This document shows, piece by piece, positions 4,663 through 59,049 of a stretch of 64,000 bases of DNA. The position numbers were made by a program, and so were the translations under genes. The notes beneath the pieces are model-generated. The model was not told the origin of the DNA, ran no database searches, and was given only the letters and a program-made list of their open reading frames with translations. The DNA is taken from the NCBI GenBank assembly GCA_044892505.1, contig CM097882.1:428978001-429042000 (forward strand). The letters run 5' to 3'. The stretch comes from Schmidtea nova (taxonomy: Eukaryota). Position 1 is the first letter of the stretch. The number at the start of each line of letters is the position of its first letter.

Positions 4663-7600
4663 TAGGGTCAGCAAAAATTCCAAAAATTTTTAATCCCGGG
4701 GATTCCCGGGATTTTGTCTTTTCTTTTTAAATCAATGAAACCAGGTTCATAAATATGAGTGGTATTAGTTTTTTATCGACAAAATCAATATTTCTTGGTA
4801 TAGGTTAATAAAAAAAATTCATTTATTTTGTTTTAAAATATAGTATAAACAAATAATCTTACATAATAAATAATATTTCATTTAAAAAGGAAGATTCACA
4901 CATTGTGCTCAAAATATATTCACAATTTAAAAATTAAAGGATCAATTATTTATTTGTTGAAAATACGACCTTAAAATGCTTAATGTATCAATCGTTTCAT
5001 TATTTAGCCGACTCCGAATTATTAGTACATCGAACCAGCAACTGAAAATGCCCGTCCCGACTCTATACTTGTGGGTTTAATCGTCATTAAAAAATTGTAA
5101 ACTCTTTGCAGATAGTCCCCTCTGTGCCACCACTTTCGAATAACGACTTTTCTTTTTGTAGTTTTTATAATGTATTTTCAACTCTTGTTGTAGGTTTTCT
5201 AGCTGATATAAAACCTTTTTCCAGGACTTGATTCAATTGCTTACTCGTATACTTCTCCTTATAAAGTATATCTTCATCGCTTGATATTTCCCTAATATCA
5301 TCAAAGGCAGCGGCTCCCTTAATAACTCCGGCTGCTAAATCGGTTGCATGCAATCTCTGAAGAAGCTCCAACATAAGTTTTTGCTTTTGGAATTTGTGGA
5401 TGGTACAAAAGCTTCAGTTATTTTCATTGAATCATTATGACCGTTGTGCAGATATTGAGCTAAGCTGCTTAATTGAGTTCTTCTCTCTTTAATTCGAATA
5501 ACTAAAGCTGAAAAATTTTCTCGACTGATGTTTGAATTTTGTTTTTCCAGCTTTTTCAACATAAATTCTAATGCAATATCGGCGGTTATTAAATTAGCAT
5601 CGCGTCGACAAATTGCATCAACTGTTAATTTAATTGGACTCAAAACATTAACTAAATCCAAAACAATTTTATACTCATATTCGTCCATTTTTAACGAATC
5701 GTCAATGGTGAAGTCAATCAGTGCCTTTTTTATACAATTTTTTAACATACAGAGTAGGCTACTCCGTCGAGTTTTACAATCACTTTTCAAATGAATGACC
5801 TTCCCAAAATCAATTTTCACATATTTTTGTAAATAATTGTCGTTTTTAGTTGGTGATCTCTTAAACATATGAACAATTTTTCTAACTTTTTTTATGACCG
5901 GTCCAATCATTTCATGGGTTATTGTTACTTCAGATGTTTCCTGATTCAAATTATTATCAACTCCAAAATTATATTCTTCACAATCGCTTTCGCTGTTTTC
6001 AGATTCAAAATAATTTGCTTCCTTATCGTCATCTTCACATTCCAAATTTTCAATAACGTTGCTTTCATTTTCAAATTCAGATAATTCTGAATGGATGTAT
6101 GGCTTGTATAGAACCGAAATTATAGCCAGATGTATGGCATGTGCAAAGCACAATTGTTGATTTGTTGGTAAAATTTTTCCTACTTTCTTCATCATGTTTG
6201 CTCCATCGGTTATAATACAAGCAATACTATCCTCGAGATCGATTTCAAACAATGAAAGTCTTTCCTTGAGTAGTAATACACACTTTTCAGCTTGTATCGA
6301 ACCAAAAATTTGGATTAAACCCAAATTCCAAAAATTACTTTCGGCATGGTGTAAATTTAAGTTCATATAGCGACAGTTTCGCAATGAGGTCCACTAATCA
6401 AAGTAAATAGAAAACTTTGAACCATTAATAATTTTATCGCCTATTTCATTTATGGCATCGTTTCTGATTTTCCTACTAAAATCTAACACTATTTTCCTAA
6501 TAGTATTAAGCAATTTTTGGACATTGTTAAATCTTCTCGCAACCAATCCGGCTCGTATATCGACAGACTTACAAATGACATTGAACGATATTGGATCTTT
6601 AGCTACTATGCGGGCAAGAACTTCAGAGAAATTATCCTTTCTCATCGTTGTGGAAAAATAATTCGTAATTTTAAGTCGCTTAGTTTGTGTTTCTTCTATT
6701 GATGTCGATAAACTTGATGATTTCATTTTTAAGTCGATTTTATGTATATATGAGAAATGGGAGTGCAGTCCTTTTGTTGAGCCGCCATTGATTTTCAATA
6801 TTTTCACGCATGTCGAATATTTTCGAAGAAATAATTTTTCACTTCGCAGTTTCGCTTTCTTTATCTCGCAAAAAATACTTCCATATTGGAGCTGTGCTGT
6901 TGAATTCAGTGTATTTGGATTCTGACGTCATGATTCAGGCCCCTAAAGAATTATTAAATTAAGTGTAAATTAATTCTTTTACTGATAGTGTTTGCTTTAC
7001 TTACATATATTTAAATTTGGATTGAAACGAATCTAGAATATATAATTTAAGATATTTTAATGATGATTATTTAGAATACTTACGTATATTTCTCTAAATT
7101 TGGATTGAATAGAAAATAATAATTAATAATTTATTGTTCAGATTTTTATGTTTACAAGGTAAAAAAATCATTTTGTAAAATAAAAAAATCGTTTTGCAGA
7201 ATAAAAAGATCACTTTGTAAAATAAAAAAAATCATTTTGTATTTTAAAAAAATCATTATGTATAATAAAAAAACCACTCCGCAAAGAAATATTTTAGAAT
7301 GTAAAAGAACAAAATATTCATAAATACATTATTAACATTTTTAACTATTATTTAATAAATTTAATACTGTAATATTAAATTGAAATCGTTCAATATAGTG
7401 ATTTTTAAACCCATATGGCTACCTACACACCCCGTAAAAAACAACTATCTGAAGATAAAAAGATTAAAAGACTGAACACACTAAATTACTGTATAAAATA
7501 CTGATTTAACAAAATATGTAATTATATTACATTATTTCCATTTACACAAACGCAATAATGTATAAAATTAATGAATATCATTTTATAATGAAATATAAAT

Positions 7601-12308: not shown

Positions 12309-12651
12309 AGTAGGCAGTTATGTGGAGCATGAGTCATCGCCGAACAAAGGAAAGGACGTCACCCCCGGGGTAGGAAAAATTTTTATGACTCATCGGCATG
12401 ACTCATCGGTATGACTCATCGATGAATCGTCGATGACTCATTTCAAATTTGAATTTTATGACGTCATCGATGACTCATTTCAAATTCAAATTTTAAATTT
12501 GAATTTCCAAATGTTCAAATAAGGTCAAACCTTCAAACAAGGGTATCATTCGAAAGGTCTTTGAGAGGTGCACACAATGGTCATACCCTCGAAGGTTTAT
12601 GGAGGGTCCTTAACCTTCAAGGGGTCAAATATCTTCAAATTTTTTCAAACC

Positions 12652-12688
<37 letters not shown>

Positions 12689-13721
12689 TTCGAAAGGTAT
12701 TTGAAGGGTGAGTATGATGGTCATACCTTCGAAGGTCTATGGTGGGTGCTCAACCTTCAAAGGGTACAAAACCTTCAACCTTTTTCAAACCTTGTGTGTA
12801 ATATATCAAACAAAAGGTAATTTAGATGTGCACACAATGGTCATACCTTCGAAGGTCTATAGTGGGTTCTCAACCTTCAAGGGGTCAAAAACCTTCAAAA
12901 ATTTTTAAACATTACTAGTTCTATATCATTCGAAAGGTATTTGAGAGTTGAGTATGATGGTCAACCCTTGAAGGTGGGTGGTCGACCCTTGAAGGGTCCA
13001 AGGTTCAAAACTATGTAATATATGTATCAAACAAAAGGTAATTGGAAATTGAGTATGATGGTCATATTCTTGTGTGTGTATGTGTCAACCATATAACAGT
13101 ACGCATTCAACGCGCGTGCAACGCGCATTGTGAGTCCCTTCCGTGTGTAAGCCATTGNNNNNNNNNNNNNNNNNNNNNNNNNNNNNNNNNNNNNNNNNNN
13201 NNNNNNNNNNNNNNNNNNNNNNNNNNNNNNNNNNNNNNNNNNNNNNNNNNNNNNNNNNNNNNNNNNNNNNNNNNNNNNNNNNNNNNNNNNNNNNNNNNNN
13301 NNNNNNNNNNNNNNNNNNNNNNNNNNNNNNNNNNNNNNNNNNNNNNNNNNNNNNNNNNNNNNNNNNNNNNNNNNNNNNNNNNNNNNNNNNNNNNNNNNNN
13401 NNNNNNNNNNNNNNNNNNNNNNNNNNNNNNNNNNNNNNNNNNNNNNNNNNNNNNNNNNNNNNNNNNNNNNNNNNNNNNNNNNNNNNNNNNNNNNNNNNNN
13501 NNNNNNNNNNNNNNNNNNNNNNNNNNNNNNNNNNNNNNNNNNNNNNNNNNNNNNNNNNNNNNNNNNNNNNNNNNNNNNNNNNNNNNNNNNNNNNNNNNNN
13601 NNNNNNACTTATAAAAAACTAAAATTTAAATTATTAACATTTATTAAATATCATTTATAAAATAACATTTATAAAATAACATTTATGCATATCGTGCACT
13701 GTCAATTCTCCAAATTGGAGT
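12309..13721 (+). repeat. Left TIR of the Maverick (includes an N gap at ~13158-13606)
   Basis: 12309-13157 is the reverse complement of ~25878-26827, and 13607-13721 is the reverse complement of 24365-24480. It contains internal ~120-bp modular subrepeats and an (AT)n tract. Confidence 0.9.
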
Positions 13722-14275
13722 TCGTCATCTTTCTCAAATTCTACCTTTATACAAAACTGAATTTTTACAGAACTCATCTGCGAAACTGTTAAATTTAATT
13801 TATTAATTAAAATATCTGGAACAACAACAATTTTTAAGTTTAAGGATGATACATCCATTTTTAAAATTATGTGGGAATCGTTTAAGTCGGAAATAACCTC
13901 GACATTTCCGCATCCTACTTGATTAATTAAATTATTATTAATTATTTGATCATCATCATCACTGATTTCGATGATTTCATCGTCATTGATTTCATCGTCA
14001 CTTATTTCAATTATTTGATATTTTTGAGGAATTGAATCCTCATTAAAAATTTTTCTTTTATTATTATTTAAATTATTAATTAAAATATTTAGGTTATTAT
14101 TTAATTGTTTATTAATATTAATTAATTCATTTATTTGATTGTTATCAAGTATTGGCTCTTTGTTAATATTTTGTACTTGGTCTGGTATTTGTTGATTAAT
14201 TATTGTTTGCTGGTTAAGTGTTTGCTGGTTATGTATTGAATATACTTTATTAAAAAGTGATTTTTTAGATGTCAT
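13655..14275 (-). CDS. Maverick accessory protein, N/Q/I-rich, with two acidic SIM-like motifs
   Basis: Open 206-aa ORF with IIEISDDE and IIEISDDDD. TATA-like tract about 35 nt upstream. The C-terminus lies inside the TIR. Confidence 0.6.
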   Translation of the reverse strand: MTSKKSLFNKVYSIHNQQTLNQQTIINQQIPDQVQNINKEPILDNNQINELININKQLNNNLNILINNLNNNKRKIFNEDSIPQKYQIIEISDDEINDDEIIEISDDDDQIINNNLINQVGCGNVEVISDLNDSHIILKMDVSSLNLKIVVVPDILINKLNLTVSQMSSVKIQFCIKVEFEKDDELQFGELTVHDMHKCYFINVIL

Positions 14276-15198
14276 TTACTGACTCAAATACAGTGTTTTT
14301 CATAAAATTGTATATATGTATGTTATCAATAATATTACAATTAGGGCATAAAAGGTGGGTGATACCGTTTTACTTATAAGAGTAATACTTTTCCATAATG
14401 ACGTGGCAGTCATTATGGGAAGTACTGTTGCAGTATTGCGGGTATAAATTGCCTATATAACAAGAAATAAAATATTAAATTCAAGTATAAAAAACATTTT
14501 ATTTACTTTTAACATATTACGTAATGATTTACAAAAACTATTACGTATTATATTAAAAGTTTAAATAAAAATATTTGAAATTTTCAAAATAACTTTTGAT
14601 AATATTTTTTCGCTATAAAGTAAAATTATTCTATTTTTCGTTATATAAAATATTGTGACTGTAAATTATTAAAAATAATATGTTATCATAAAATTATCGT
14701 TCATAAAAAGGTTTCATAATCATAAATACATTAATCATTTCTTTTTCATAAATAAATCATTTTTATAAAAAAAATCATTTTATAAAATAAAATCATTTTA
14801 TTTTCATAAATAAATAAAATTCATAAATAAATAATTTCTTCTTCATAAAAATAATGGTCATAAATAAATCATTTTTATAAAATTAATTCATAAATAAATC
14901 ATTTTCATAAAATTATTAAATAAACCATTTCACATTAATAAATCATTTCATCTTCATCAAACTAATGGTTAAAAAATTCATAAATAATTTCATCTTCATA
15001 AAACCACTTGTCATAGATCATTTTCTTAAAATATATAAATCATTTCATCTTTAATAACTTAAATTTAACCATTTCTCTTCATAAATAAAACATTTAATTT
15101 TCATAAAATTCATAAAATTTTTAAAATATTATTATTGTTTTATAATAATATTATCAATAATTATTATAAAATAATAAAATATTTAATAATATATTTTC

Positions 15199-15622
15199 TT
15201 AGACATCATATAAAAAATAATCAAAATATTTACATTTTTTCGATCCAATCGTTAATCCAGCAGCATTAAAATTTGATCCATTACAAGTAGAACCAGCTGC
15301 ATTCGGGGCATAAAAACGAGAACCAGCAGTAATTTGAGCATCAGTTTGACCATAATTTATTATATTATTAATTTCAAAAGATAATTGTCAATTAAAATTA
15401 ACAATAATAAAAGTAAATATACCATTGACTCTATTTCCAATGACTCCATTTCCAATGACAGATCCGTTGTTATTTGAGATAATGTTCGCGATATTGTTCG
15501 CTATATTAACTTCTAATAATATTAAAAATAAATAAGTAAATAAATAAAAAGTAAAATTTACCATTGACTCCAGCTCCCTATGATTTTCGAGCAACTCGTC
15601 CTTGATTCATTAAGTTATTCAT
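15199..15622 (-). pseudogene. Spliced Gly/Asn-rich Maverick accessory gene with ARKS motif
   Basis: Exons 15562-15622, 15423-15512 and ~15199-15350, joined by phase-1 introns. Intron 1 is a 49-nt GT-AG; the intron 2 acceptor reads TG rather than AG. In-frame TAG at 15578-15580. CCAAT (15724) and TATA (~15690) upstream. Confidence 0.5.
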
Positions 15623-16097
15623 TTTTGTTTTAAAGAGTTGATAATAGATTTTGAGATTAAAAGTGACGAAATAGTACAAGTATAGACTATATAAAGCAGA
15701 TAATTTCAAGTTTTATTAACCATCCAATCAGAATCGAGATAGGATAGGGAAATAAATGCGCACATACTGCATGTTTGTTTATGTGACGATAGTTGTTATG
15801 TGACTACATAAAGACATGTAAGTTCACAACCCCACGTGTCTTTATGTTGTGACTTTATCGACAGAGGCTTTGTTGATGTCATCATGCTTTATGATATACA
15901 TGTGACGAATAATTTAATAATATTTATNNNNNNNNNNNNNNNNNNNNNNNNNNNNNNNNNNNNNNNNNNNNNNNNNNNNNNNNNNNNNNNNNNNNNNNNN
16001 NNNNNNNNNNNNNNNNNNNNNNNNNNNNNNNNNNNNNNNNNNNNNNNNNNNNNNNNNNNNNNNNNNNNNNNNNNNNNNNNNNNNNNNNNNNNNNNNN

Positions 16098-16354: not shown

Positions 16355-16771
16355 TTATTGCTTTAAATAATCAATAACTGCACTCAAACATCCTTTATAG
16401 GCACACATACTATGGTCATTATATGGACATGAGATATTTTCTGGAACATCTTCAAATTCTTTAAAATTATATTTAATTAATCTTAATTTCGGAAAATATT
16501 TCTTCAAAACTTGCAACTTTTCATTATCTGTAACATAGAAAATAGCTCCTTTATCTATAATATCATCCATAATACATTTTGGGCAAAAATAATCTTGTCC
16601 TTCAAACCATTCTAAACGATCAGGCCAGAAAGATAAATCACTGTATATATAATACTGAGGTGTGAAAATACTATTTACATTCATAATACATAATTCCTTA
16701 ATAGTTGTTCCTACAATGTCATTATAACCGTAAATATCAATAAAATAACAAGTTATTTTTTACAATAACAT
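16355..16771 (-). pseudogene. Maverick-associated small protein (possible DnaQ/DEDD-like fold, Cys/His-rich C-terminus)
   Basis: ATG at 16771 with a premature TAA at codon 4, then in-frame IDIYGY..IKELCI..WFEGQDY..FYVTDNEKLQVL..CPYNDHSMCAYK. The family is recognised from motif recall only. Confidence 0.45.
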
Positions 16772-16788
16772 TTATTAAACTAAATCGT

Positions 16789-17167
16789 TTATAACATTGA
16801 TTTTAACCATGCTAGGCAATGTTGTCCATAAGTGATTGTTAATGGATGTTGATACCGAATTCTATTATACACAATAGGTTTACCAATAGTTTGCAATTTT
16901 CGAACAAGTAAATTTGGATAATAATATCCAAAGGGATCAAATACATGTATTCGATCTGGTTTCACGTAAACAGCAATCCAATGTTCACCGCCCAAAGTAG
17001 AAGTGTGAGTATTTACAATGATAGCTTGATTCATTTTCAAATAAGGTATTTTATCTAACGGAAAAACTCCAATAAATTGGTTTCCCAATAGTTTTTTACC
17101 TTGTTGTAATACCTGAATAGAACTAATTAAAAAATAAATAATTATTCAATTAAAAAACTTACTCCAT
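16789..17167 (-). pseudogene. Adenain-like cysteine protease, spliced, catalytic Cys mutated
   Basis: join(17163-17167,16789-17122) with a 40-nt GTAAGT..AG intron gives MDSIQVLQQ... Motifs IVNT..GEHW, FDPFG and Q..LTITYGQHC, where TAT replaces the expected TGT of CG.xC. Confidence 0.85.
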
Positions 17168-17258
17168 AATAATAATAATTATAATAACTTTGGTTATTTA
17201 TACTGCTCAAACTAGTATCGTTTAAGCTTTGCTCAAGCTAATAATGTTTGAGCTTTGC

Positions 17259-18478
17259 TCAAACAAGTACTGTGCGATTGGCAGTTATTTTTACTTCATT
17301 TTCAAACAATCCATACATAAATACATGAACCGGTTCCTCAATGGGTTTTGCAAACTTTATATCTAGCCTTAAATTACCATTTTGAGGGATTTGACTTTGA
17401 TTCAAATCAAAATCGGGAGCCAAAACAAATGTAAAGAATGGATAACTAGATTTAAATTCATCTAGACCTATACCACAATTCAAGTTTTTATCCAAATAAC
17501 CTAGATTTCGGACAAGACTTTGCATATATGTGGCACTAAATTTATCATTTTCAAAATCTTGAGTATAAGTTTCTCGATAATCGGTATTTTTCGACAATGA
17601 TAATGAAGTCACATTAAAGTGTTTGAATGTAGATGAAGATTCAACATATGATCCGTTATATTGATTTTCAGTTTGAAAAGCTACAAGAATGAAATTAGGC
17701 ATTCTTCTATCTCCAAATATTTGCTCCTTGTAAAATGACGATGCACCTTTACCGATTGCAAACGATACGATTTCTTTGGATTTTATCGGATAAATTGCAT
17801 GTTTGCTATTTAAACCAATTTGATGACCAGCCAAAACTGAAGATTCACTTCGAACTCTTCGAACCATTAATTTATCGTCTACTAATTGTATTATTGGTTT
17901 CCCAGTTGCAGATTTCAATGATAATGCAGAATCAGATCGCTTCAATCTAATATGTACATTAACTCCAGGTAGTAAGTATTTAGGTTGATCCATAAAATCA
18001 AGTTGTAATGACGAACACATGTTGAAAAGTTTTGATCCCTTGATCCACTTTTTTCTATCGTCACTTGCACCATATTCCATGGGAGTAAGACAAGTTTCTT
18101 TTGAATCATTCGTATAATTTAAAATAGTTTCGATTATTGCCTTGTGTGCATATGTATTGTTTCCACCCTCAATTTTTATATTATTAAATCCAAGAATTAC
18201 ATCTTTAAAAAGTGTATGAAACAAGTAATTATTAGGTACTCATCACTCGCATCAACTAGAGGTTTTTTATCTTTATCTACAACTTTGACCGTAACGGATA
18301 ATAATGTATCGTTCAAATCCAAATATTCGGTTTGTGAACCGTTAATGTAAAATTCAACATCATTTCTACTATCTGTAATAGAATTCCTTAGAAACACATC
18401 TTCAAACACCCCATATTCAATAACTGCTTGAGGGCTTGGTCGATCAAAAATACATAATTCAGATTTACCGCAAATCAT
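17259..18478 (-). pseudogene. Maverick major capsid protein (PY, double jelly-roll), one frameshift
   Basis: KSELCIFDRP..VEFYING..YLDLNDTLL..PNNYLFHTLF..YAHKAIIETILNY..FKHFNV..GNLRLDIKFAKP. Frameshift at ~18230. Confidence 0.9.
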
Positions 18479-18823
18479 TCTTCAAATATAGTTCCATGAC
18501 CTTTCATTCGTTTGTTTATACGCTTTCGTTTACGTCTTGGTCCTACTGGTACAGGTTCCGGTTCATTTTTTGAAAACATATTTGTAATTGAAGGAAGCAT
18601 TTGTGTTACAGCAGGTATAGCTTTATTAACTGCGGCCAAAGCATTTGTTTTCAATGATGGTAATAATTTATTATCTTTCATGATAACGTCCTTGGCAGTA
18701 TTCATTCCAAAATCTCCCAATAGTTTTCAACCAACCTGATCCATACTGTTTACCTACAAAATACGGTAATTCACCACCAGTTTGGCTATTACTATACAAA
18801 GAAACTATATCGGGATTACTCAT
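18475..18823 (-). pseudogene. Small Maverick QxGxG-motif virion protein, one frameshift
   Basis: MSNPDIVSLYSNSQTGGELPYFVGKQYGSGWLKTIGRF / GMNTAKDVI..RRKRKRINKRMKGHGTIFEE. ATGA overlaps with both neighbours. Confidence 0.7.
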
Positions 18824-19833
18824 CGTTTTTTTCGAAAATGTAGAGTTAAATGAGTTTTTGAATTTTTGGAAAAGTTTATTAATCTTCCACTATCATCCCT
18901 GATATTTATTTCTATATTGTTTATACATGAATTCGAAAGCGATAAATACATTGGATTTTCTACTTGTATTTGAACAATTTCATCTTGTTCGTATTTTTCG
19001 ATCCATATCGATTTTAGTATAGGAACCAAAGAATCACCAACAATTATGGGTTCGATAATGTTAGTATATATGAATAATTGCTGATGAAGTTTAGTTAATT
19101 TCAGTTGACGAATACCAAAAACGACATTTTTACCACTAAATGTATCCTTATCTAATCCGAATGTATTGACCAGGTATTTATCAAATTTCACTTGAGTAAT
19201 GTTTTCATTGAGTTTGAATTTGAACAATTTATTTAATTCAACAATAGTAAAAATATACGAACAATTATCGGAAACATATTTCTGTAATTCATCTAGTTGC
19301 GTTATATACAAGTCATCCTTGAATGTGAATACATGTTCTTCTACTATATTATAAGATATACTAAAATTAAATATTTCTTCTTCTTTACTACCAATTTTTT
19401 GCGAAACATTGAATTCACATTCTTCTGAATTACATGTCATTGTCAGTTTATTACTTCCCATTCGTTTTGCTTCATCAAGATTATTAAATGTAATTGTATA
19501 AGGAGTAATATTACATGTGAGAATTATTCTTCCACTTCGATGCCACATTTCGATTTCTGGATCAATAGTGTGAGTTGGAACATTTAGCTTACCACTAGCA
19601 TTATATATCGAGAAAAATGCATTTGCAACAGTCGTTTTTATTTGTTTGTAAAAAATTTTACATTGACTATAAAATGAAAAAGGTTGGTAAACAAATGTAA
19701 AATCCAATAGAGCAACTTCCCAATTTCCTTGTAAATAAATAGGATTTTGTAGATTGACCATGAATTTACTTGCGGTATTATCTGGATGGATATTCGGGCA
19801 ACTATTGCTCGGTAAAATAGTGTAAAAATTCAT
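18820..19833 (-). CDS. Maverick minor capsid protein (penton, PX)
   Basis: Open frame MNFYTILPSNS..HPDNTASKF.V.L..PI.L.GNWEVAL..LFIYTNIIEP.IVGD..P.L..NP.Y..IEINIRDD.GR..F..LTLHFRK. Confidence 0.88.
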   Translation of the reverse strand: MNFYTILPSNSCPNIHPDNTASKFMVNLQNPIYLQGNWEVALLDFTFVYQPFSFYSQCKIFYKQIKTTVANAFFSIYNASGKLNVPTHTIDPEIEMWHRSGRIILTCNITPYTITFNNLDEAKRMGSNKLTMTCNSEECEFNVSQKIGSKEEEIFNFSISYNIVEEHVFTFKDDLYITQLDELQKYVSDNCSYIFTIVELNKLFKFKLNENITQVKFDKYLVNTFGLDKDTFSGKNVVFGIRQLKLTKLHQQLFIYTNIIEPIIVGDSLVPILKSIWIEKYEQDEIVQIQVENPMYLSLSNSCINNIEINIRDDSGRLINFSKNSKTHLTLHFRKKR

Positions 19834-20874
19834 TTTACTATGTTTTTTGACGATATCCATGATGGTTCTTTATATCCATGCCACTTGACATAGTATTGTT
19901 TATCCTTACCTACCATTTTAGTCTTCAAAAGTTTTTGATTTCTAAATATTGTCGGAGGGGGAATAACTTCTAATTTTTGTTCATAGAATTTCCCACTGAC
20001 TATATTGTTATCAGAGTCAGAAATAGTATACATGGCAGGATTCTGGACTGTGTTGACCTTCGATATTTTAAATACCTCATCACTCCAATTACTATCAAAA
20101 TTTTTAATGAATGGCGATGCACTAATTTTACTAATTCGAACATGATCACCAATTTTATATTTTGGTTTCTTTATTATTATTTCACTCAAGATATTTTCAG
20201 TATTAACTACTTCAGCAGGTTTCCTGCTATTTATACCTCAATGAGCAGAATGATTATAACTATGGATCATTTGTGGTAAAACATTAATTCATGTTTTATT
20301 ACCTTGATGTACAAAATAATTTTTGAGACGATCTCGTAATGTACGATTAAATCTCTCGACATGGGCTGCTTTGAATTTCGAGAATACCGAGTAATGATTG
20401 ATTCCCTTAATAACTTCCTTGACTTTACTGTTGTAAAATTCCTTTCCTAATGTATATTAAATATATAAATTTTTATTTAAATTTACCCAAATCGGTTTGT
20501 AAATTTGTTGGACGATCCTTTTTCATCATTGCTTTGATCGCGATTGCCATGTCATTAGCTGATTTAGATTTTACTGCAATAGCCCGAGCAAATAGACTGT
20601 AAACATCAATAAATGTTAAAATATACTTGTATCTCTTGTTAATTTTTGAATACAGAATCATTTCCATCAAATCCATTTGCCACAAATCATTGATTCTATA
20701 CGTTTTATATTCTCGTGTCGGAAACCGTTTCAGCATCGGTTTGTTTAGATTGTATGTAAGTTGCCCCGATAACCAACTTTGTGTCTGTTGTTTCGACTTC
20801 TGTACTTTTTGCCTTAACTTTTCGACTCCACCGAAACCGGCTTCGTCTTTTGGGTTCGTCCAGATCTTCTCCAT
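19830..20874 (-). pseudogene. Retroviral-type (rve) integrase with C-terminal chromodomain, disrupted
   Basis: W.NPKDEAGFGG, LWQMDL, YKYILTFIDVYS, LQTDLGK, K..HVERFNRT, YKIGDHVRI, QYYVKWHGYKEPSWI. Frameshifts and stops between ~20190 and 20480. Confidence 0.92.
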
Positions 20875-20926
20875 TACAACAAGAAGATTTATAGTTTAAA
20901 TTTAGATTAGGTAATGATTCACCCAT
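20705..20926 (-). CDS. Small ORF overprinting the integrase 5' end
   Basis: ATG 3 nt after the upstream stop (TAA ACA ATG). 73 aa MGESLP..SSCC..KRRSRFRWSRKVK, overlapping the integrase in another frame. Confidence 0.35.
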   Translation of the reverse strand: MGESLPNLNLNYKSSCCNGEDLDEPKRRSRFRWSRKVKAKSTEVETTDTKLVIGATYIQSKQTDAETVSDTRI

Positions 20927-20929
20927 TGT

Positions 20930-21470
20930 TTATGACTTTCTTTTTCCCAATAGACCAGCACCACCTAATAATGATAAAGCTAGGGGTAACAAAGCTGCGA
21001 TGAATCCTCCTTGTTGTTTATATATTATTTTGCGCATAAGTTTTTTATTTTTTGTTTTTACAAGTGATAACAATGGTTTCTTGTGTTTGTTCAAAACCCT
21101 ACGATTAGATGGAGTTAGATTCATTTTACCTCTAACGACTTTAATTAAAATAGCGAGTAAATCATCAATGACGTAATTGGGAAACGACTGAAGAATACCA
21201 ATTCTTCTAACACTGGGGGCTTTAGGCAATGCATTAAAAAACGGAAAACTCCGATGATGTATTTGTTTAGGATTAGATTTCAAATTAGTGGGAATTTGAT
21301 TTTGTTTGTGAAAATTATCCATAATTAGTTTTTTCGAAGGAGTATAACTGGTTTTAGAAACGGGTTTTAAAACTGATTTCTTTGTTTTCTTTGTTTTCTT
21401 ACCCACTTTTTTTCATTGTGTTTCTAGCCTTTATCAATCGCTCAAACCTTACTCTAGATTTCATTAACAT
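20930..21470 (-). pseudogene. Basic core-like protein with an adenovirus pX-like C-terminus
   Basis: K/R-rich ORF ending KQQGGFIAALLPLALSLLGGAGLL. The probable start is near 21464-21470, with a frameshift in an A-run at ~21410. Confidence 0.7.
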
Positions 21471-21490: not shown

Positions 21491-22097
21491 TTAACTTTGT
21501 TTATAAACCATGGCTCCTTCCTTGTTGAAAATATCAGTTCGAACTCTTAAATCATCACTGCATTGTTGGGTGAAATCAAGGAAAAGATATTCATGAGGAG
21601 CTTTTGTAGCATCTTGAAACGCATCAATCAAGAAATTTTCGATTAGAAGGGTATGCTTGTCTTGCCAGAAAATCAATAACTGTTGCATCTCTAGGATTTT
21701 TAAAAACAACAAGATATTGAACATTCAAATTCCTGGTTCAATGACTACCGCCCTGATGAAATAAATTCTGAGTAATAAAAATAACTGTAACACTCTTGTG
21801 TTAAATTGTTAAAATCCTTTTCTTTATTTGCTTCTTGATACAAATCATCAATAATAATCACATTCCCTTCTCTTAATCTAGATGACCAATTTTTAACGAA
21901 ACCTTTTATGATTGTCATTTTTATTTTACAAAACTGATCTTGAGTCATTCCATGTTCATCATCAGCGCCCCTATGCCAATAAATTTTATTAAACTTTGAT
22001 TTGAATAATTTAGATTGTAATAATTTACAAACAAACAAAGTTTTCCACTACCGCTCGGGCCGACAATTTGGTAAACTACATCATTTCTTAATTCCAT
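21491..22097 (-). pseudogene. Maverick packaging ATPase (FtsK-HerA/A32-like), frameshifted
   Basis: MELRNDVVYQIVGPSGSGK(T) with a 1-nt deletion in Walker A; Walker B IIIDD; IFITQNLF; LNVQYLVVFKNPRD; YLFLDF.Q..LRVRTDIF. Confidence 0.92.
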
Positions 22098-22186
22098 GTT
22101 TGTAATTATTTATTAGTATTATTATTGTTTATATTGATTAAAATATTAATTATCTTTTTGTTGTTACATTTAAAATATTTTTATTA

Positions 22187-22639
22187 ATGATTAGAAACAT
22201 TAATTACAAGGGTAAGACAGATGTGTCACACATGAAATTCCCAGCAAATTGTCGATAGAAGTGGAAAGTACCCAATAATATACTTTAAGACAGGTAGATA
22301 TAGAATAATGGGATGCAAGGAATTTATTAGTGATGAAAAAGTAAAGTTTCATGATTTAACAATACAATCGATAACTGTGACTGCAGATTTAGGATTTATT
22401 TGTAATTTAAATGAATTATCTAAATTGATTCCATGTGTTTATGAACCAGAATTATTTCCAGCTTTGAGATATATAAATATAATCCAATGTGTATCAATAT
22501 ATTTGCAAGTGGTAAAATAGTCATATTAGGATTAAAAAACAAAGACTATGCAAATATAGTAGATAATATTATTAATGATATAAAATCAATTATAGAAGGT
22601 AAAGCCTTTGTTGATTTCATACTAACATGTGACTCATGA
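22187..22639 (+). pseudogene. TATA-binding-protein-like gene inside the Maverick, two frameshifts
   Basis: Reconstruction: MIRNINYKG..IIYFKTGRYRIMG..KFHDLTIQSITVTADLGF..YEPELFPALRYIKYNPMCINIFASGKIVILGLK. This aligns by eye to TBP KFLDFKIQNMVGSCDVKF..YEPELFPGLIYR..LIFVSGKVVLTGAK. Frameshifts at ~22240 and ~22475. Confidence 0.85.
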
Positions 22640-22674
22640 CTGCAAAAACCCTGCAATAGAAATGCACGATTCTG

Positions 22675-22778
22675 ATTGGTTAAGTGTGTATTTATTGAAT
22701 AAAGACATGTTATACATAATCGAATCTGATTGGTAGAATGTATGTATTATTTTCTTGTGTGTTACTTTGGTATATATA
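22675..22778 (+). promoter_or_regulatory. Pol II-type promoter: two TCTGATTGGT (inverted CCAAT) boxes and a TATA box
   Basis: ATTGG at 22675 and 22729, TATATATA at 22771, ATG at 22815. Confidence 0.55.
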
Positions 22779-22814
22779 GAATGAACATTTTGAAATCATT
22801 TATAATTTTTTGCA

Positions 22815-23536
22815 ATGTTTCTAAAATCTACTTTAGTTAAATACGGTAAAGTTTTAAATTTTTCATTTTTCATTTTTATAATATTTATTTACAGATAAAT
22901 TGATGGCCGTACTGTTCGGCAAAATGGAGGAGATGTTTCCAAGCCTGATGTCTAAACTAATTTTTCACTCTTCATTATTATAGTATTTATTTTTTAGATA
23001 AATTGATGTCCGTAGTGCTAGCCAAGCTTGAGGAAATCTACCCAAAACTGATGCCAACATTGATATATACAGCACCAGAGATGTTTCCACACAAGATACA
23101 ATGCCTGACCGGAATCGATATCAACCAGGTCGTGCTTGATCACCTGGCCAATCGGGATACCGAATTACCATATATGGCTGAGCACATCTTGTGCGCATAT
23201 CAATGCGGCCATTGTATGGAGAGCATCCAGAAATTCCATATCTGGGTGTTACGGAACGCCCTCAACCACTATGAATCAGAAATTAAAAAATTGGAAACAA
23301 TCAATGAGGAGGAACCTAAAGAAATATGGCCGAATGCAACACAAGATTCGACTGATTGCATGGATCAAAATCCGGACTGTGACAAATCTACGGATTGTCT
23401 ACCAACTCTCGATGGACCATATCCGCTGGAATGCGATCAGTCGACAAATTGCGATGAGTCGACAGAATCCCCAGAATCGCCAAATTGCGATGAATGCCAT
23501 CGCAAAATTGATGATAATGTTGACATGGTTCAATAA
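22815..23536 (+). CDS. Spliced Maverick accessory protein (Cys/His core, acidic Cys-rich tail), unknown function
   Basis: Exon 22815-22845 (MFLKSTLVKY-G|gt) splices in phase 1 to AG at 22997 into the 177-aa ORF. An alternative acceptor at 22894 gives a short paralogous peptide. Confidence 0.6.
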
Positions 23537-23918
23537 ATGTTTTTGGGTTATTATATTTTAGATGTTATCATTTTTATATGTTGTCATTTTTTGTTATAAT
23601 TTAATAAATGTTTATTTATATATGTCTTCGTTTTTATTTTAGTTTATTTTTATTTATTTAAAAGTAAAATCAAGTAAAAAATTCACAAAGTAAAATAATT
23701 TTTAGTCTATTTTAAAGTAAAAATAAAAGTCTTTAAAGTAAAATCAAGTAAAAAACTTTTCAAAGTAAAATAACTTTTAGAAAGTAAATAAGTGTCTGCG
23801 AAAAGTTTTTTAATTCGAAAAAATAATTTATAATATGATATAAAATACAGTAATTAAACACACACATGCATGCAAACAAAGACATGCAGACATAGTGCAG
23901 TTTGAATGCATCACTTTG

Positions 23919-23949
23919 ATTGGACAAAGGCATTAGTCGTCACTATAAA
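23919..23949 (+). promoter_or_regulatory. Inverted CCAAT plus TATAAA promoter
   Basis: ATTGG at 23919-23923, TATAAA at 23944-23949, ATG at 23988. Confidence 0.5.
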
Positions 23950-23987
23950 TACAAAGACATTTTGAAGATATTGTCACAATTTTAAAA

Positions 23988-24403
23988 ATGCCAGCACGTA
24001 AATCAACTTATGACATCAGTGAAGAAAGAAAAATCAATAATGAAGTTAAACCCGTACAAATGTATAACGATTACAAAATTTATTTCTTGGTTCGAGAAAT
24101 ACCTTTTCGTTTATCGTATCCAGTGAAATTAACAAAGTCATATATGACAATTTAGCTGCAAATCTAAGTAAAGAAGATGTTTTTGCACTAAATAAAGTTT
24201 TATTCAAAATCAATAATAATTTAAGTTGCAAGGAAACTATATGGATCAACAACCGAAAAACCCGTTTCCATGATGTCTTTCAATCTATCGATTACAAGGA
24301 TCAAGAAAATTGGTTTATTACCATAATCATACAGAGATATAAAATCAATACAAAAGATGTTATTACTCCAATTTGGAGAATTGACAGTGCACGATATGCA
24401 TAA
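23988..24403 (+). pseudogene. Maverick accessory gene starting MPARKST, one frameshift
   Basis: Frame 1 MPARKSTYDISEERK..IPFRLSY, shifting at ~24110 to SEINKVIYDNLA..PIWRIDSARYA*. The stop lies inside the TIR. Confidence 0.55.
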
Positions 24404-24728
24404 ATGTTATTTTAGAAATGTTATTTTATAAATGTTATTTAATAAATGTTAATAATTTAAATTTTAGTTTTTTATAAGTTTTTTATAAGTTTTTANNNNN
24501 NNNNNNNNNNNNNNNNNNNNNNNNNNNNNNNNNNNNNNNNNNNNNNNNNNNNNNNNNNNNNNNNNNNNNNNNNNNNNNNNNNNNNNNNNNNNNNNNNNNN
24601 NNNNNNNNNNNNNNNNNNNNNNNNNNNNNNNNNNNNNNNNNNNNNNNNNNNNNNNNNNNNNNNNNNNNNNNNNNNNNNNNNNNNNNNNNNNNNNNNNNNN
24701 NNCTGAGCAAACTTTGGCTATTTGTTGT

Positions 24729-24860
24729 GCATTTTATTTTTTTCCTAACAGCGTCTGTGTGCGCTTATTTCTTAACAGCGTCTGTGTGCGCTTATTCAAT
24801 ACGCGTCTGTGTGCGCAATATGTTTTTTCTTCTAGCGTCTGTGTGCGCAATATAATTTGG
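24729..24860 (+). repeat. Four short repeats with core GCGTCTGTGTGCGC
   Basis: The motif recurs four times at ~27-36-nt spacing. Confidence 0.8.
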
Positions 24861-25141
24861 AATTTATTATCTCTCGATTCTTGTTTTTCTTGGATTTTAG
24901 AGTTTGAGAATTTGATTTGATTGATTATTTTTATTGATAATTGAATTGTAGGAATATGGTTTTGTTTTATTATTCCAATGAATTTTTGTGATGGTTTCGA
25001 TTATGGAATTTAGAGGAAGCTTTGAATTTGATTTGAATTTAGTTTTATAATTTGGAAGTTATTATTACTGGATTCTTGTTTTTCTTCGATTTTGATTTGG
25101 ATTGAAATTAAAACGTTAATTTCAAAGTGTGAACTATTTGA

Positions 25142-25513
<372 letters not shown>

Positions 25514-26521
25514 NNNNNNNNNNNNNNNNNNNNNNNNNNNNNNNNNNNNNNNNNNNNNNNNNNNNNNNNNNNNNNNNNNNNNNNNNNNNNNNNNNNNNNN
25601 NNNNNNNNNNNNNNNNNNNNNNNNNNNNNNNNNNNNNNNNNNNNNNNNNNNNNNNNNNNNNNNNNNNNNNNNNNNNNNNNNNNNNNNNNNNNNNNNNNNN
25701 NNNNNNNNNNNNNNNNNNNNNNNNNNNNNNNNNNNNNNNNNNNNNNNNNNNNNNNNNNNNNNNNNNNNNNNNNNNNNNNNNNNNNNNNNNNNNNNNNNNN
25801 NNNNNNNNNNNNNNNNNNNNNNNNNNNNNNNNNNNNNNNNNNNNNNNNNNNNNNNNNNNNNNNNNNNNNNNNNNNNCAATGGCTTGCACACGGAAGGGAC
25901 TCACAACGCGCGTTGAATGCGTACTGTTATCTGTCTTACACACAAGAGACTCACAACGCGCGTTGCACGCGCCTTGAATGTGTACTGTTATATGGTTGAC
26001 ACACATACACACACGCAAGAATATGACCATCATACTCAACTTCCAATTACCTTTTGTTTGATACATATATTACATAGTTTTAAACCTTGTACCCTTCAAG
26101 GGTCGACCACCTACCTTCAAGGGTTGACCATCATACTCAACTCTCAAATACCTTTCGAATGATATATAACTTGTAATGTTTAAAAATTTTTGAAGGTTTT
26201 TGACCCCTTGAAGGTTGAGAACCCACAATAGACCTTCAAAAGTATGACCATTGTGTGCACATCTCAATTACCTTTTGTTTGATATATTACACACAAGGTT
26301 TGAAAAAGGTTGAAGGTTTTGCACTCTTTGAAGGTTGAGCACCCACCATAGACCTTCGAATGTATGACCATTGTGTGCACATCTCAATTACCTTTTGTTT
26401 TATATATTACACACAAGGTTTGAAAAAGGTTGAAGGTTTTGCACCCTTTGAAGGTTGAGCACCCAGCATAGACCTTTGAAGGTATGACCATCATACTCAC
26501 CCTTCAAATACCTTTCGAATG

Positions 26522-26552
<31 letters not shown>

Positions 26553-27028
26553 GGTTTGAAAAAATTTGAAGGTTTTTGACCCCTTGAAGGTTCAGGACCC
26601 TCCATAAACCCTCGAGGGTATGACCATTGGATAGACCTTTAAAAGACCTTTCGAATGATACTCTTGTTTGAAGGTTTGACCTTATTTGACCTTTGGAAAT
26701 TCAAATTTAAAATTTGAATTTGAAATGAGTCATCGATGACGTCATCGCGATGAGTCATAAAAAATTCTACCCCCGGGAGTCATTTCCTTTGTTCGGCAAT
26801 GACTCATGCTCCACATAACTGCCTACTCATTGTAAGATCAAAATAGAATCCTTAAAAGATATCTAGATAAATAAAATTACCTGATAGCCATTTTTAAAAA
26901 ATGGCTAAATAAAAAATAAATGTAAATGAATAAATAAAACAATAATCAAAGTAACTACGAGTAACAAGTAGGTGTGCAAACCTACTTGTATCATAGTTAT
27001 TTTTAATGCTTGAAACCAGGTGTATTAT

Positions 27029-32045: not shown

Positions 32046-33844
32046 AGAAGATGAATTTAGATAAATCCAAGCAGCACCAAGTATATAAGCAGAAGATGAA
32101 TTTAGATAAATCCAAGCAGCACCAAGTATATAAGCAGAAGATGAATTTAGATAAATCCAAGCAGCACCAAGTATATAATCAGAAGATGAATTTAGATAAA
32201 TCCAAGCAGCATCAAGTATATAAACAGAAGATGAATTTAGATTAATCCAAGCAGCATCAAGTATATAAAGAGAATGTGAATTTAGATAAATGCAAGCAGC
32301 ACCAAGTTTATAAAAAGAAATCGCAAGAGAAGATGGAGCTCAAAAATGTTAATAAAATGCAGCCTCCAGCAACAACCCTTTATATTTTTAATAAAAATCT
32401 TTGGCTGTTTATGTTTATTTATTCAGTCACGATAATTGGTGTCAGAAGACCTGATAATTCCCATCTTCGAAGTTCTCACAGTACAATGACGAGTGGAAAT
32501 TCAAACTACAACACCCAAACCACTGCAGAAAACTCAGGAAAGCTAAAAGTATAAGATGACTTGACATATATCGATCGAGTTAAAGGAAGATTTAATGAGG
32601 ATTTCTATAAAAATTCTCTCGAAGTTATGAAAGATTTCAAAGCTCAAAAATTAAACGCAGTTGCGGTGACACATCCCAATCCAAATGATATGACAATAAG
32701 TATCATTTATTATATTTATATAAATAAAATTGTATTAATATTTCTCACAATTTTATATATATTATTTTATAAATATTGTTTAACATATATTATATCATTT
32801 AAATTTACACTTCCCGAATTTTTTATCCCGCCTCTCTTCCACCCTTTAACTACAAACAACACCCATAATCCTAACCTAGATCCAACACACAATAACGATT
32901 CTTTCGCCAAAACCACACCGATACTACCAGCCTATATCCTCACGCGTTTTAATAACATAATACGAGAAATCGCCGTTACTTCCGATCTACACACAGACAT
33001 TGCCACATCGCTTCGCATTGACAAGACCTCATTCTACGTGTCATGCAATGGTTCTTTAGTCTCCTCTTCTACCCAGCTACAGTCTAATTCAATCTTGGAC
33101 ATCAAATGTCGCATCCTAGGAGGCGGTAGAATCACAACAGAGTCATCTTCCTCATCCGTATTTCGTCCCATACTGTTTTTCTTAGATCAAGACGGTACAC
33201 CTTCCTCGTGGTTTCGCATTTTTGAAGCCCGCACATCTTCTTTCCAGAAATCACGAGCCGATTACCTCCTTGACAGTTTACCCGCTGAGTTAATAGCCGA
33301 GCTTGCTCAGAAAATAGCAAATGCCCTTGATTCTGATAGCCCATACGAGAAATTAAAAGGACTTATAGTATCCAAATATACCTCATCACAGACCCAAGCT
33401 CTAAAGAAACTCTTGGCGCCACAGATTTACTCAGGGCAACAACCTAGTCTCTTTTTGGGTGAGATAATTCGTTTAAATGATGAGGCAGAAAGATGAGCAG
33501 AAGATGAATTTAGATAAATCCAAGCAGCACCAAGTATATAATCAGAAGATGAATTTAGATAAATCCAAGCAGCACCAAGTATATAATCAGAAGATGAATT
33601 TAGATAAATCCAAACAGCACCAAGTATATAAACAGAAGATAAATTTAGTTAAATCCAAGCAGCATCAAGTATATAAAGAGAATGTGAATTTAGATAAATG
33701 CAAGCAGCACCAAGTTTATAAAAAGAAATCGCAAGAGAAGATGGAGCTCAAAAATGTTTATAAAATGCAGCCTCCAGCAACAACCCTTTATATTTTTAAT
33801 AAAAATCTTTGGCTGTTTATGTTTATTTATTCAGTCACGATAAT
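32046..33844 (+). mobile_element. Internally deleted LTR retroelement (Gypsy-type gag) with 45-bp tandem repeats in its LTRs
   Basis: Direct repeats at 32046-32436 and 33497-33844. Primer-binding site (PBS) TGGTGTCAGAAG at 32437-32448, complementary to a tRNA-Leu 3' end. The gag-like ORF is truncated by a deletion into the 3' LTR. Confidence 0.75.
32486..33496 (+). pseudogene. Ubiquitin-like domain-Gag fusion ORF
   Basis: ATG at 32486 with one TAA at 32552-32554. UBL at 32930-33124 ending CRILGG, followed by Gypsy Gag-like WFRIFEAR..LLDSLP..YEKLKGLI..KLL..GQQPSLFL. Confidence 0.65.
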
Positions 33845-56085: not shown

Positions 56086-59049
56086 CTAATCTTCGAGCCA
56101 TTCAGAAGTCGGCTTCACGTCATCATAATCAATATTTGTACCCTTCATAAAGCCATCATCATTGGTAGGGTTGTCAATATATTTCGAACTCTTAACATTC
56201 TTTCTCGTGTCCCTCGAGTAATGATTAGGTGCCCTGTTACTGGAACCATCGCACAAAGCTCTCAACCAATCAGGACACTCCTGATTCGCTTCCTGCAGCT
56301 TACTAACAAGGCCTTGCGCCAAACCAATGTCTTTCATTTCATCAAAAAAGCTAATTGCTCGGCCAACATTTCCACAGCGGCCGGTCCTGCCAATCCGGTG
56401 AACATATGTATCGATCGTGTCGGGCATATCGATATTGATGACATTATCGACCTTCGGAATATCGAGCCCTCGGGCAGCAACATTTGTAGCAACCATAAAA
56501 TTAACTCGGCCACTCTTGAAATCATTCAAAGCGATTTCTCTCTGTTCCTGTTCTCGGTCACCGTGAATTGTTGTCGCTTTAAATCCCAAATATCCGAGCT
56601 TGATTCCCAAAAAGTCCGCCATTCGCTTACTCTCAACGAAGATCAGCGTTTTCTCATCGGGAATCGTTTTAATATACTCAATAGCAGTGTTAATTTTTTC
56701 CCTTTGATCCGATTGGATAATTTCCTGTTTCACGTCGCTATTCGCAGAACCAACAACTCCAACTGCCAGAAACAGATAATTCTTCAACAGGTTTCTCGCT
56801 AAGTTCTGTATTTCATTGGGAAAAGTTGCACTGAACATCGATATTTGTATCGATCGATCTTCACCACTAAAATTGGCTTCATTATAGATTTTTTGCACAC
56901 TTTCATAAAATCCATCCGAATCGAGCATCCTATCGGCTTCATCGAGAACAAAAAATTGTAAATATCTCAGGGACAACCAAACCAGTTCCAGGAAATGTAT
57001 CAAACGCCCAGGAGTCGCTACTAAAATATCACAGCCTCCTGTTGCTTGGATATTGCGACGGGACTTGTTCATTTCTATCCCCCCGTAAATGTAAGCACAT
57101 TTGACGTTGGAGCCTCTACACAAATGCCGAGCAGCTGTGAATATCTGTCGACAAAGCTCTCTCGTTGGTGCCATTATTAACGCTTTTGGAAATGCAACAG
57201 CTGATGTCGTTGTAGATTCACTCGTACTCGCACTCAGTGACTTAATTATTGGAATAAGAAAAGCTGCAGTTTTCCCTGAACCGGTTTGAGCGCATGCCAT
57301 TAGATCGCGCTTATTATCGATTATTGGGACTGCATATTTCTGTACAGGAGTGAGTTTGGAATATTTTAAATTATCGATGTTAGATAGGAGAAATTCGGGT
57401 AGATTGAGACTACTGAATGAATTCAGTGATTGAGGTGCGTCATCGCCTGTAACTTCTACCGGGATTTTATCATAATTATCGAAATTAATACCAGAATTCA
57501 CATGGAGTTCGTAATCTTCCTGGTTGTCATCAGGAATAAATGTTGCTCGTTTAACTGCGATTGGAACAGTGGAATCGTCATTATCGACTTGTTCCTTATT
57601 ATTAATTTGATGATCGGGTTTTTGGTTACGATCTGAATTCATTTTTGACGAATAAGGCATATTTCTTTCAGTTAACGTAACAGTTCTATTAAAATCACTA
57701 CAAAAATCATCATTTTCATTATTAGATCTGTTATTTGCATTATTTTTTCCATGAAAATTTTCTGATTCGTAATTATTTCTTTCTCCGTTATTTTCTCTTA
57801 AACAACCTCTATTATTATTACTAATTCTTTGCTCTCTGTTGAATTCCTCTCGACGTTCATCCCATGATTCATCATTGTCCATTTTTCTATTTCTCAACCG
57901 ATCTTTTTCACGTGAATCGTCACGCTTAAAACAATCGTAATTTTCATCGGTTCTTTTTCGATTTTCACGCGAATCTTCTCGATTGCGCCGGTTTGATCTA
58001 TGATTTTTGTCGCTACTATCACGTGAATCGTCACGGCGATTTAAATGTTTTCGATTATCTCTTGAATCGTCACGGTATTTTTTTCGATTTCTTGAATCAT
58101 CGCGATAGCTTCGACGATCTCTTGAGTCGTTTCGAGACCTTTTATTATAATCAAGCGAGTCATCGCGGCGAGATTTACGTTCCCTTGAATCGTTACGGCG
58201 GCTTTTATAATCCGTTGATTCATCTCGGCGTTTTTTATATTCCAGTGAGTCGTTTCTACGTTTTTTATGATCTATTGAGTCATCGCGGCGGGATTTACGT
58301 TCCCTTGAATCATGGCGACTTTTCTTTAAGTCCCTCGAATTGTCACGATTTTTCCTATATTCCAATGAATCATCACGATAATTTTTCCTCTCTCTGGCTT
58401 CCTCTCGCTTGTAATCATTTGTTTTATTAAGATATCTATCATTTCTTTCAACAGGACTTTTTTCTCTTCTATCGTAATTTCTCTCATTTTTATAACTAGC
58501 TTGCTCACTTTCGGTAGTTTTTTTCTTTTCCCAGTTGTTTTTATTGTCCTGGTAACTTGATTTGTTATTCCTATCATTGCTATTATAATTATTCCTATTA
58601 TAATTCGTATCACTAGTCCCATTCCTATTCTCAAATTCTTCCACTTTTCTCGTTGCGAATCTATTCGTTCCTCTATTTCCACTAAATCCCCCTCGTTTCT
58701 CAAAAGATGGACCATTTGAATTATTCATATTATTGTCTTTGTTATAATTGTTACTAACATTAAATCTCGAAATTGGTTCAGTTGTTGTGTTGTCACCATT
58801 TGTAGTTACTTCATTGTCACTGCCGAATCCATTTTGAGATTTCGAGTCACTTTTATGGCCATTTGTGTTGTTACCAGCAACTCCAGAAGCAGTTTTACCT
58901 AAAAGAAAAAAAATCATTTGAGAAATATTGAAAAATAAAGTGAAAAATACCCCATGCTCCCCATTCTTCGTCACTGAGTCCTGAAATTATAGTCATTAAA
59001 AGCTGTAAAATGCTCAAAAAAATGTTTTCTTACCATCATTAACCGACAT
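56086..59049 (-). CDS. vasa: Vasa DEAD-box RNA helicase (952 aa; join 59034-59049, 58951-58980, 56086-58898)
   Basis: Two phase-1 GT-AG introns (53 and 52 nt) give MSVNDGLSDEEWGAWGK.. All helicase motifs are intact (AQTGSGKT, PTREL, TPGRL, DEAD, SAT, HGDR, ARGLD, HRIGRTGR). Vasa-type residues ADFL and GRCGN.GRAISFFD, and an acidic Trp-containing end (SEWLED), distinguish it from PL10/DDX3. Confidence 0.93.

Follow-up and report, generated by a model that had tools for sequence, protein, structure and literature searches.

Among the beta- and gamma-herpesviruses, TBP mimics include BcRF1 of EBV and UL87 of HCMV, and the TBP-like proteins of the Nucleocytoviricota work with a viral RNA polymerase. 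According to the sections on ORF24 in PMC12529657, the KSHV protein ORF24 is a viral TBP-fold mimic with a non-canonical TATA-like motif (TATT) before virion genes; it departs from TBP at V122, T124, V161 and L205 (Table 1 therein), is without the acidic TFIIB residues and, by prediction, does not bind TFIIB. The ORF24-type mimics are the closest known system to the TBP-like gene described here (TBPL).

It has long been an open question in what way capsid and integrase genes are controlled in Mavericks, and whether these elements pass through a viral life cycle. The list of eight vertebrate Maverick core genes in PMC8097293 and the adintovirus gene section of PMC8502044 contain no TBP, and one supplement of the latter gave no TBP match; "TBP" stands as a bare label in the Fig. 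5 legend of that paper and its preprint, for MELD viruses and elements akin to them, with no analysis alongside. In their relevant passages, PMC11131425 and 10.64898/2026.06.19.733378 mention VLTF3 only and PMC12209930 describes a divergent cellular TBP, and a text search of PMC11161782 and PMC11296320 for TBP, TATA and promoter was empty. The literature covered, with most subscription journals, Repbase and figures outside it, yielded no description of a Maverick TBP paired with a cognate motif.

A broken TBP-like gene in a Schmidtea nova Maverick

The window, that is, the whole stretch of 64,000 nt of Schmidtea nova DNA that was analyzed (contig CM097882.1), contains an element that shares with Mavericks/Polintons (adintoviruses) an A32 ATPase, an rve integrase, an adenain protease, a DJR capsid protein (the capsid match is weak, E 0.002), a PolB-position ORF, here reduced to remnants, and flanking long inverted repeats. 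Its features are given below in window coordinates; motif sites are from a motif scan unless stated otherwise.

12489..13721, no strand: left long inverted-repeat arm (repeat analysis)
13715..14453, minus: remnants of the 5' part of PolB, other PolB parts missing in the window copy (sequence comparison)
16355..16759, minus: orfX, a conserved ORF with Cys/His residues, weakly similar in fold to DEDD exonucleases (fold search)
16786..16793, minus: TATAAACG motif 5' of orfX
16789..17202, minus: adenain-like protease (Pfam), an exception with TATAAAT (17202) before the gene instead of the motif
17259..18478, minus: major capsid protein (MCP) in two pieces (DJR-like domain, E 0.002)
18513..18520, minus: TATAAACA motif 42 nt 5' of the MCP ATG, within a small ORF
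18820..19869, minus: conserved 349-aa ORF (PZ), likely minor capsid by position
18918..18925, minus: TATAAACA motif 5' of a small basic ORF
19830..20895, minus: rve integrase with chromodomain, fragmented (Pfam)
19897..19904, minus: GATAAACA motif within the integrase 3' end, 5' of the 349-aa ORF
20927..20934, minus: CATAAACA motif 5' of the integrase
20930..21470, minus: basic PW-like ORF, named by position
21015..21022, minus: TATAAACA motif 5' of a small ORF (20708-20926)
21491..22097, minus: A32-like packaging ATPase, fragmented (Pox_A32, E 1e-6 on an unbroken copy)
21498..21505, minus: TATAAACA motif 5' of the PW-like ORF, within the ATPase 3' end
22098..22186, no strand: divergent ATPase/TBPL spacer of 89 nt, without CCAAT and TATAWAW
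22126..22133, minus: TATAAACA motif 36 nt 5' of the ATPase ATG, candidate TBPL site (spacer alignment)
22187..22639, plus: TBPL, broken near 22240 and 22475 (frame pieces, Pfam, unbroken natural copies)
22640..24403, plus: accessory ORFs (22961-23536 and 23949-24403), with ATTGG/TATAAAT upstream
24365..26715, no strand: right long inverted-repeat arm (repeat analysis)

This Maverick is dead: ATPase, integrase and MCP are fragmented, and PolB is present as three short remnants only. In other copies of this genome the PolB-position ORF is 1,270-1,430 aa long and has no DNA_pol_B_2 match, whereas that of a distant Maverick, L127, matches at E 4e-46. The PW-like ORF presumably deserves its name, given by position, and the 349-aa ORF, which from its position we take to be a minor capsid protein, had no Pfam and no PDB match.

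The TBPL start codon (22187, plus strand) and that of the ATPase (22097, minus strand) are 89 nt apart, in agreement with the ~90 bp divergent spacer of the original prediction. Also as described there, the spacer is without a CCAAT box (neither CCAAT/ATTGG nor TATAWAW occurs on either strand of 22098-22186) and accessory genes have such boxes, ATTGG being found at 22675, 22729 and 23919 before accessory ORFs; TATAAAT at 23944 precedes an accessory ORF as well. The window copy of TBPL consists of three frame pieces. Judged against unbroken natural copies 93-97% identical to it, frame-breaking deletions lie near 22240 and near 22475, and as the unbroken copies are 155 aa long, a gene of ~150 aa with two frameshifts had been correctly foreseen. 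The two larger pieces match Pfam TBP (E 3.6e-6 and 3.8e-4), and the unbroken natural copy P0001 (155 aa), which was the query for searches and folding, matches TBP (PF00352) at E 2.2e-14. The reported likeness to TBP repeat 2 was found again, with YEPELFPA, IFASGK and both repeat-2 Phe present in the window. The apparent lack of the first Phe region is partly due to the window copy's own break; unbroken copies keep the position as a conserved Lys-Pro where TBP has Arg-Phe. The window copy is a broken member of a conserved TBP-fold gene of the Maverick/Polinton lineage.

Several other features of the window and its relatives were recorded. The orfX model (pLDDT 84.5) resembled DEDD exonucleases and Maelstrom domains only weakly (E 0.002-0.02); its Cys/His residues are invariant, and the gene is conserved beside TBPL in many relatives. 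An intron-like sequence, GTAAG ... TTCAG, directly follows the protease ATG (17167-17100, minus strand) and is conserved in five copies (window, L105, L116, L118 and L120), and short palindromic repeats of the TTGAGCAGAGCTCAAA type lie 5' of the protease. The 349-aa gene is duplicated in tandem in L037 (5610-7684), with a motif site near each copy, and ORFs of the ubiquitin-conjugating, dual-specificity phosphatase, RING and C2H2 zinc-finger types lie in or beside related elements (L037:225-722, L033:3975-4316, L121:6339-7169 and L076:1495-1908). Outside the element, the window contains a 966-aa DEAD-box helicase ORF (56086-58986, minus strand; Pfam DEAD, E 8e-43), and the element flanks hold decayed ORFs with the appearance of hAT-like transposases (435-2758 and 5335-6927, minus strand) and a DUF7041 gag-like ORF (32555-33496, plus strand).

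Fold, conservation and origin of TBPL

The AlphaFold model of unbroken TBPL (66-row alignment) has a pLDDT of 94.3 and a pTM of 0.83. Foldseek gave 44 matches at E<=0.001, every one a TBP entry, and the top VIA structure is TBP (Z 12.3, rmsd 2.4 over 141 residues; the first non-TBP row has Z 6.2). TBPL is thus modelled with the TBP saddle fold of the PF00352 family, as the original prediction had supposed. Repeat 1 keeps its strands and has no helix of >=4 residues before residue 79 in the model, so that two full repeats are not seen, and the G125-Q158 span has a median of 19 aa in TBPL vs 32 in cellular TBP and 27 in the wider TBPL family. The missing repeat-1 helix is a docking surface for TFIID-type partners in TBP.

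Residues were counted in 116 homologues, in yeast numbering anchored on P0088, at sites from Table 1 of PMC12529657 supplemented from general knowledge. In these counts, which are inflated because the homologues were collected with the TBPL protein and its profile, three intercalating Phe are kept (F116 in 116/116, F190 in 115/116 and F207 in 116/116) and the fourth is lost (F99>P in 112/116); the DNA face carries V122>R in 115, T124>M in 116, N159>S/T in 116, V161>T/S in 114 and L205>N in 116, and the sequence retains an acidic TFIIB stirrup (E188 in 116/116, E186 as E/D in 110/116). The DNA-facing surface therefore appears, from these substitutions, to be conservatively rewired. TBPL shares with cellular TBP/TRF (PF00352) the fold, the YEPELFP stirrup and F116/F190/F207, and differs by an identity of only ~25-29%, six conserved DNA-face changes, a shortened repeat 1 and a long branch between them. 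With the Nucleocytoviricota proteins it shares a TBP fold borne by a virus (the top match in BFVD was to Heterosigma akashiwo virus, at E 7e-8 and 17% identity), but no viral RNA polymerase is encoded in the Maverick elements examined here. With the herpesvirus mimics it has in common a virus-encoded TBP fold, polar changes at V122/T124/V161/L205 and a non-canonical box. ORF24, however, has 752 aa and several domains and belongs to a viral complex, whereas TBPL is a bare 155-aa saddle for which no partner subunits were found; TBPL keeps E188 and is without F99 and the repeat-1 helices, whereas ORF24 is without acidic TFIIB residues; and the box is TATAAAC in the TBPL lineage vs TATT in herpesviruses. 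The Pol II-binding N-terminal and the C-terminal domains of herpesvirus vTAs are absent from the 155-aa single-domain ORF, the search having left out longer fused forms, and EBV BcRF1 is a weak fold match (E 0.013). TBPL is not a member of the herpesvirus family of late TBP mimics, but it probably works like one.

In the TBPL search of this genome 15,685 candidates came up and 150 were scored; the open frames in most of these run to 160-170 codons. This genome holds a very large Maverick expansion of several subfamilies, with TBPL 55-95% identical; a first look gave 12,500-15,700 candidates with TBPL, ATPase or capsid as the query, 150 being scored in each case, and these figures are not copy numbers. 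Among seven unbroken TBPL copies from different subfamilies, dN/dS was 0.10-0.37 in 21/21 pairs, values biased downward because unbroken copies were chosen; TBPL appears from these comparisons to be under purifying selection. The intact copies that had been proposed as a check thus exist, and the synteny was recovered too: TBPL stands head-to-head with the ATPase in 19 of the 20 own-genome loci picked by ATPase alone (20 listed of 150 scored). From 101 candidates the protein search gave 92 matches, of which the first 78 were short relatives (39-76% identity), and a profile search reached a wider group of longer relatives, one of which, L076, adjoins an ATPase and an integrase. Core Maverick genes adjoin TBPL in 29 of the 56 metagenome loci, and in 10 more a shared accessory gene alone does; the other 17, all on contigs of 3.1 kb or less, show neither. 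An ATPase-based scan independently recovered L125, which also carries TBPL. In the viral contig collection no relative of TBPL, ATPase or MCP was found, apart from one weak, unrelated-looking locus, and the phage collection gave no match to the ATPase. With its predicted fold, the signs of selection and loci in this genome and in metagenomes, TBPL answers to the element-specific TBP that had been postulated, conserved family-wide.

The head-to-head position, seen at 42 of the 43 own-genome starts looked at, where the spacers measure 81-114 nt, did not hold up as a general argument. In 15 metagenome loci with both genes, TBPL lies upstream in the same direction in 12, at the run end in one, and divergently in only two, at >=384 nt; TBPL directly follows orfX in 14 metagenome loci. 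The layout was accordingly rejected as a mechanism, and because it is not conserved outside this genome the motif described below, not the layout, carries the argument. TATAWAW precedes 11/18 TBPL genes and CCAAT 6/18; in the main subfamily of this genome neither TATA nor CCAAT lies 5' of TBPL.

In addition to its canonical TBP gene (L087), the host has a duplicated paralogue (L088/L089) and two divergent intron-poor TBP-family ORFs (L090 and L091). In a quick tree, with NCLDV TBP left out as in all our TBPL trees, the 13 cellular TBP rows, four of them from the host, are separated from all TBPL rows by a long branch (1.88, SH-aLRT 100), and a grouping of TBPL with two exons of host TBP was not rejected by the AU test (p 0.305). 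Distances in the TBPL tree are correlated with those in the ATPase tree (rho 0.87 with 15 elements, 0.82 with 11 and 0.74 with 8), which suggests long residence and not strict co-divergence, because kin share both genes; the two trees differ in places.

The [TCG]ATAAAC[AG] motif before the core genes

The spacer alignment contains one conserved block, TATAAACA on the ATPase strand (window 22133-22126). It was present in 18/20 ATPase-picked own-genome loci, at -32 to -37. We then scored 120 nt upstream of script-picked start codons at 24 loci of 22 lineages, including three own-genome subfamilies, chosen by us from those fetched. [TCG]ATAAAC[AG] occurs on the sense strand before 70 of 76 core genes, the windows not being independent since they come from related elements and shared studies: ATPase 15/15, PW 10/10, integrase 10/11, 349-aa ORF 7/7, small ORF 7/7, capsid 9/9, protease 4/6 and orfX 8/11. 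With the ATPase discovery set left out the count is 55/61. The antisense motif was found in 0/76 core windows, shuffles gave a mean of 2.9 and a maximum of 8, and the rate in host DNA is ~0.013 per window. An unbiased screen of the windows had ATAAAC as its top hexamer. TBPL itself (0/18) and orfY (1/9) account for one motif in 27 TBPL/accessory windows. For ATPase, PW and orfX, 30/33 sites lie at -31 to -40, and the dead window copy keeps eight sites along its core run. A non-canonical AT-rich element had been postulated for the spacer, and TATAAACA is such an element, present also before nearly all core genes.

The first base is C or G in 17/73 sites and A, giving AATAAAC, in one; the last base is G in 10/73. 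TATAWAW in core windows is not above shuffles (21 vs 18.0). Inside upstream genes the motif is read in two frames, as Ile-Asn or as Tyr/Asp/His-Lys-Gln/Arg, and Ile-Asn is written ATA-AAC in 16/28 cases in the last 45 codons vs 6/84 elsewhere (25 ORFs, p 1e-7); since two frames are used and the Ile-Asn codons are fixed as ATA-AAC, the constraint acts on DNA. Exceptions are the protease, with TATAAAT in the window, in 4/4 own-genome copies and in L065/L067, and orfX, with canonical TATA in 3/11. A rough look near the PolB 5' end of five own-genome copies found no motif in any (5/5).

The distant Maverick L127 (ATPase 37% and capsid 23% identical), on a contig filed in a bacterial MAG, encodes a 186-aa near-canonical TBP (P0277; 11568-12125, minus strand) with four Phe and canonical N69, V122, T124, N159 and V161. 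P0277 was placed between TBPL and the cellular TBPs in a quick tree, and a protein search found no close homologue. In L127 and its relative L126, whose contig is cut and on which no TBP was seen, the motif is present in 1/15 core windows and TATAWAW in 9/15 (3 antisense), a contrast from one pair with one TBP-bearing contig, not a series. Searching this genome with the L127 capsid gave, among 150 scored, only the same family at 24-27% identity and no TBP-less Maverick.

A putative early-to-late transcription switch

We consider it likely that TBPL binds [TCG]ATAAAC[AG] in place of host TBP and thereby switches on the core genes as a group. The observed part of this explanation comprises the fold model, conservation, selection, the motif and its placement. 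TBPL and the accessory genes would be made first, from host-type promoters (TATA, often CCAAT). TBPL would then sit on TATAAAC, ~30-40 nt before each core start codon, and recruit host TFIIB and Pol II through its kept acidic stirrup, while without the repeat-1 helices it would no longer be tied to TFIID-type partners; expression of the core genes would be "late" as judged from gene class only. As in the herpesvirus vTA system, a non-canonical TATA-like motif precedes virion genes, with TBPL as its putative cognate protein. In the sections of PMC1636458 on the TBP-TATA contacts, the N-proximal repeat of TBP touches the box in its 3' half, a place at which the yeast variant examined there disfavours C. 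The most altered repeat of TBPL may therefore face the deviant base, i.e. the rewired N-terminal repeat would meet the C at the box's 3' end.

The motif could instead be a weak TATA box for host TBP/TFIID, or for some divergent host paralogue, with TBPL tuning, repressing or doing something else. TATAAACA is one mismatch off the TATA consensus, the C(-25) TATA variant has been crystallized with plant TBP (entry record of PDB 1qn3), plain TATAAAT occupies the same place in some core genes, and at least three additional TBP-family genes are present in the host (L088/L089, L090 and L091). Under such a reading drift to a better TATA would be expected, yet the C is held in 70/76 windows, the first base is relaxed to C/G, TATAWAW stays near its shuffled count, and the motif is lacking in the element whose TBP is canonical-like (L127; 1/15 windows with L126), which makes this reading rather unlikely. 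The strict strand and fixed start-codon distance fit a core-promoter element better than a host forkhead-type factor that would tie element expression to host cell type. The forkhead consensus RYAAAYA fits ATAAACA and occurs in 67/76 core windows, but the other usual forkhead core, GTAAAC, is at chance (4/76 vs shuffles 4.0) and the sites that end in G do not conform; we regard a forkhead reader as highly improbable. A TBPL acting as a decoy, sequestering TFIIB or blocking host promoters, or repressing the element's genes at the motif, is very unlikely: the loss of one intercalating Phe and both repeat-1 helices could leave a non-productive complex, but the DNA-facing substitutions are invariant, not decayed, and a matching motif lies at promoter distance before each gene.

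It is scarcely probable that the motif serves RNA processing, termination or packaging instead of acting as a promoter, or that the machinery of a helper virus reads it as in virophages. ATAAAC is close to AATAAA and in many cases sits in the 3' end of the gene before it, and virophages and PLVs reportedly share helper-virus promoter motifs. The motif nevertheless precedes the ATPase, which here has no upstream gene on that strand, and where it overlaps an upstream gene it lies in the coding part, ahead of the stop. AATAAAC is avoided (1/73), no AG lies between motif and ATPase ATG in the window, and the intron-like protease sequence points to nuclear host transcription; roles as poly(A) signal or splice acceptor were rejected. 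As for a one-off host TBP retrocopy or a decayed passenger, the named refuting case for an element-specific TBP, the window copy is indeed broken and the AU result is compatible with an old host origin; purifying selection, presence across diverged lineages and the long branch in the quick tree speak against it, so that a recent retrocopy was rejected and the probability of this reading is close to nil.

With TBPL as the reader of the motif, the window Maverick would likely have had a private early-to-late transcription switch. We suggest tentatively that animal Mavericks widely carry their own TBP, and that TBP and promoter co-evolve as an orthogonal pair (rewired saddle with TATAAAC, canonical saddle with canonical TATA). 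If the proposal is true, TBPL would prefer TATAAACA over TATAAAAG, and as an altered-specificity TBP made by nature it could be instructive on DNA reading by the saddle. A TBP of the element's own, together with its matching box, offers a concrete, testable control point and an aid to annotating gene starts. The 155-aa single protein would then be the smallest known viral late-transcription switch on host Pol II/TFIIB and a convergent parallel, in an unrelated virus realm, to herpesvirus late transcription, and integrated Mavericks would run a true viral gene cascade.
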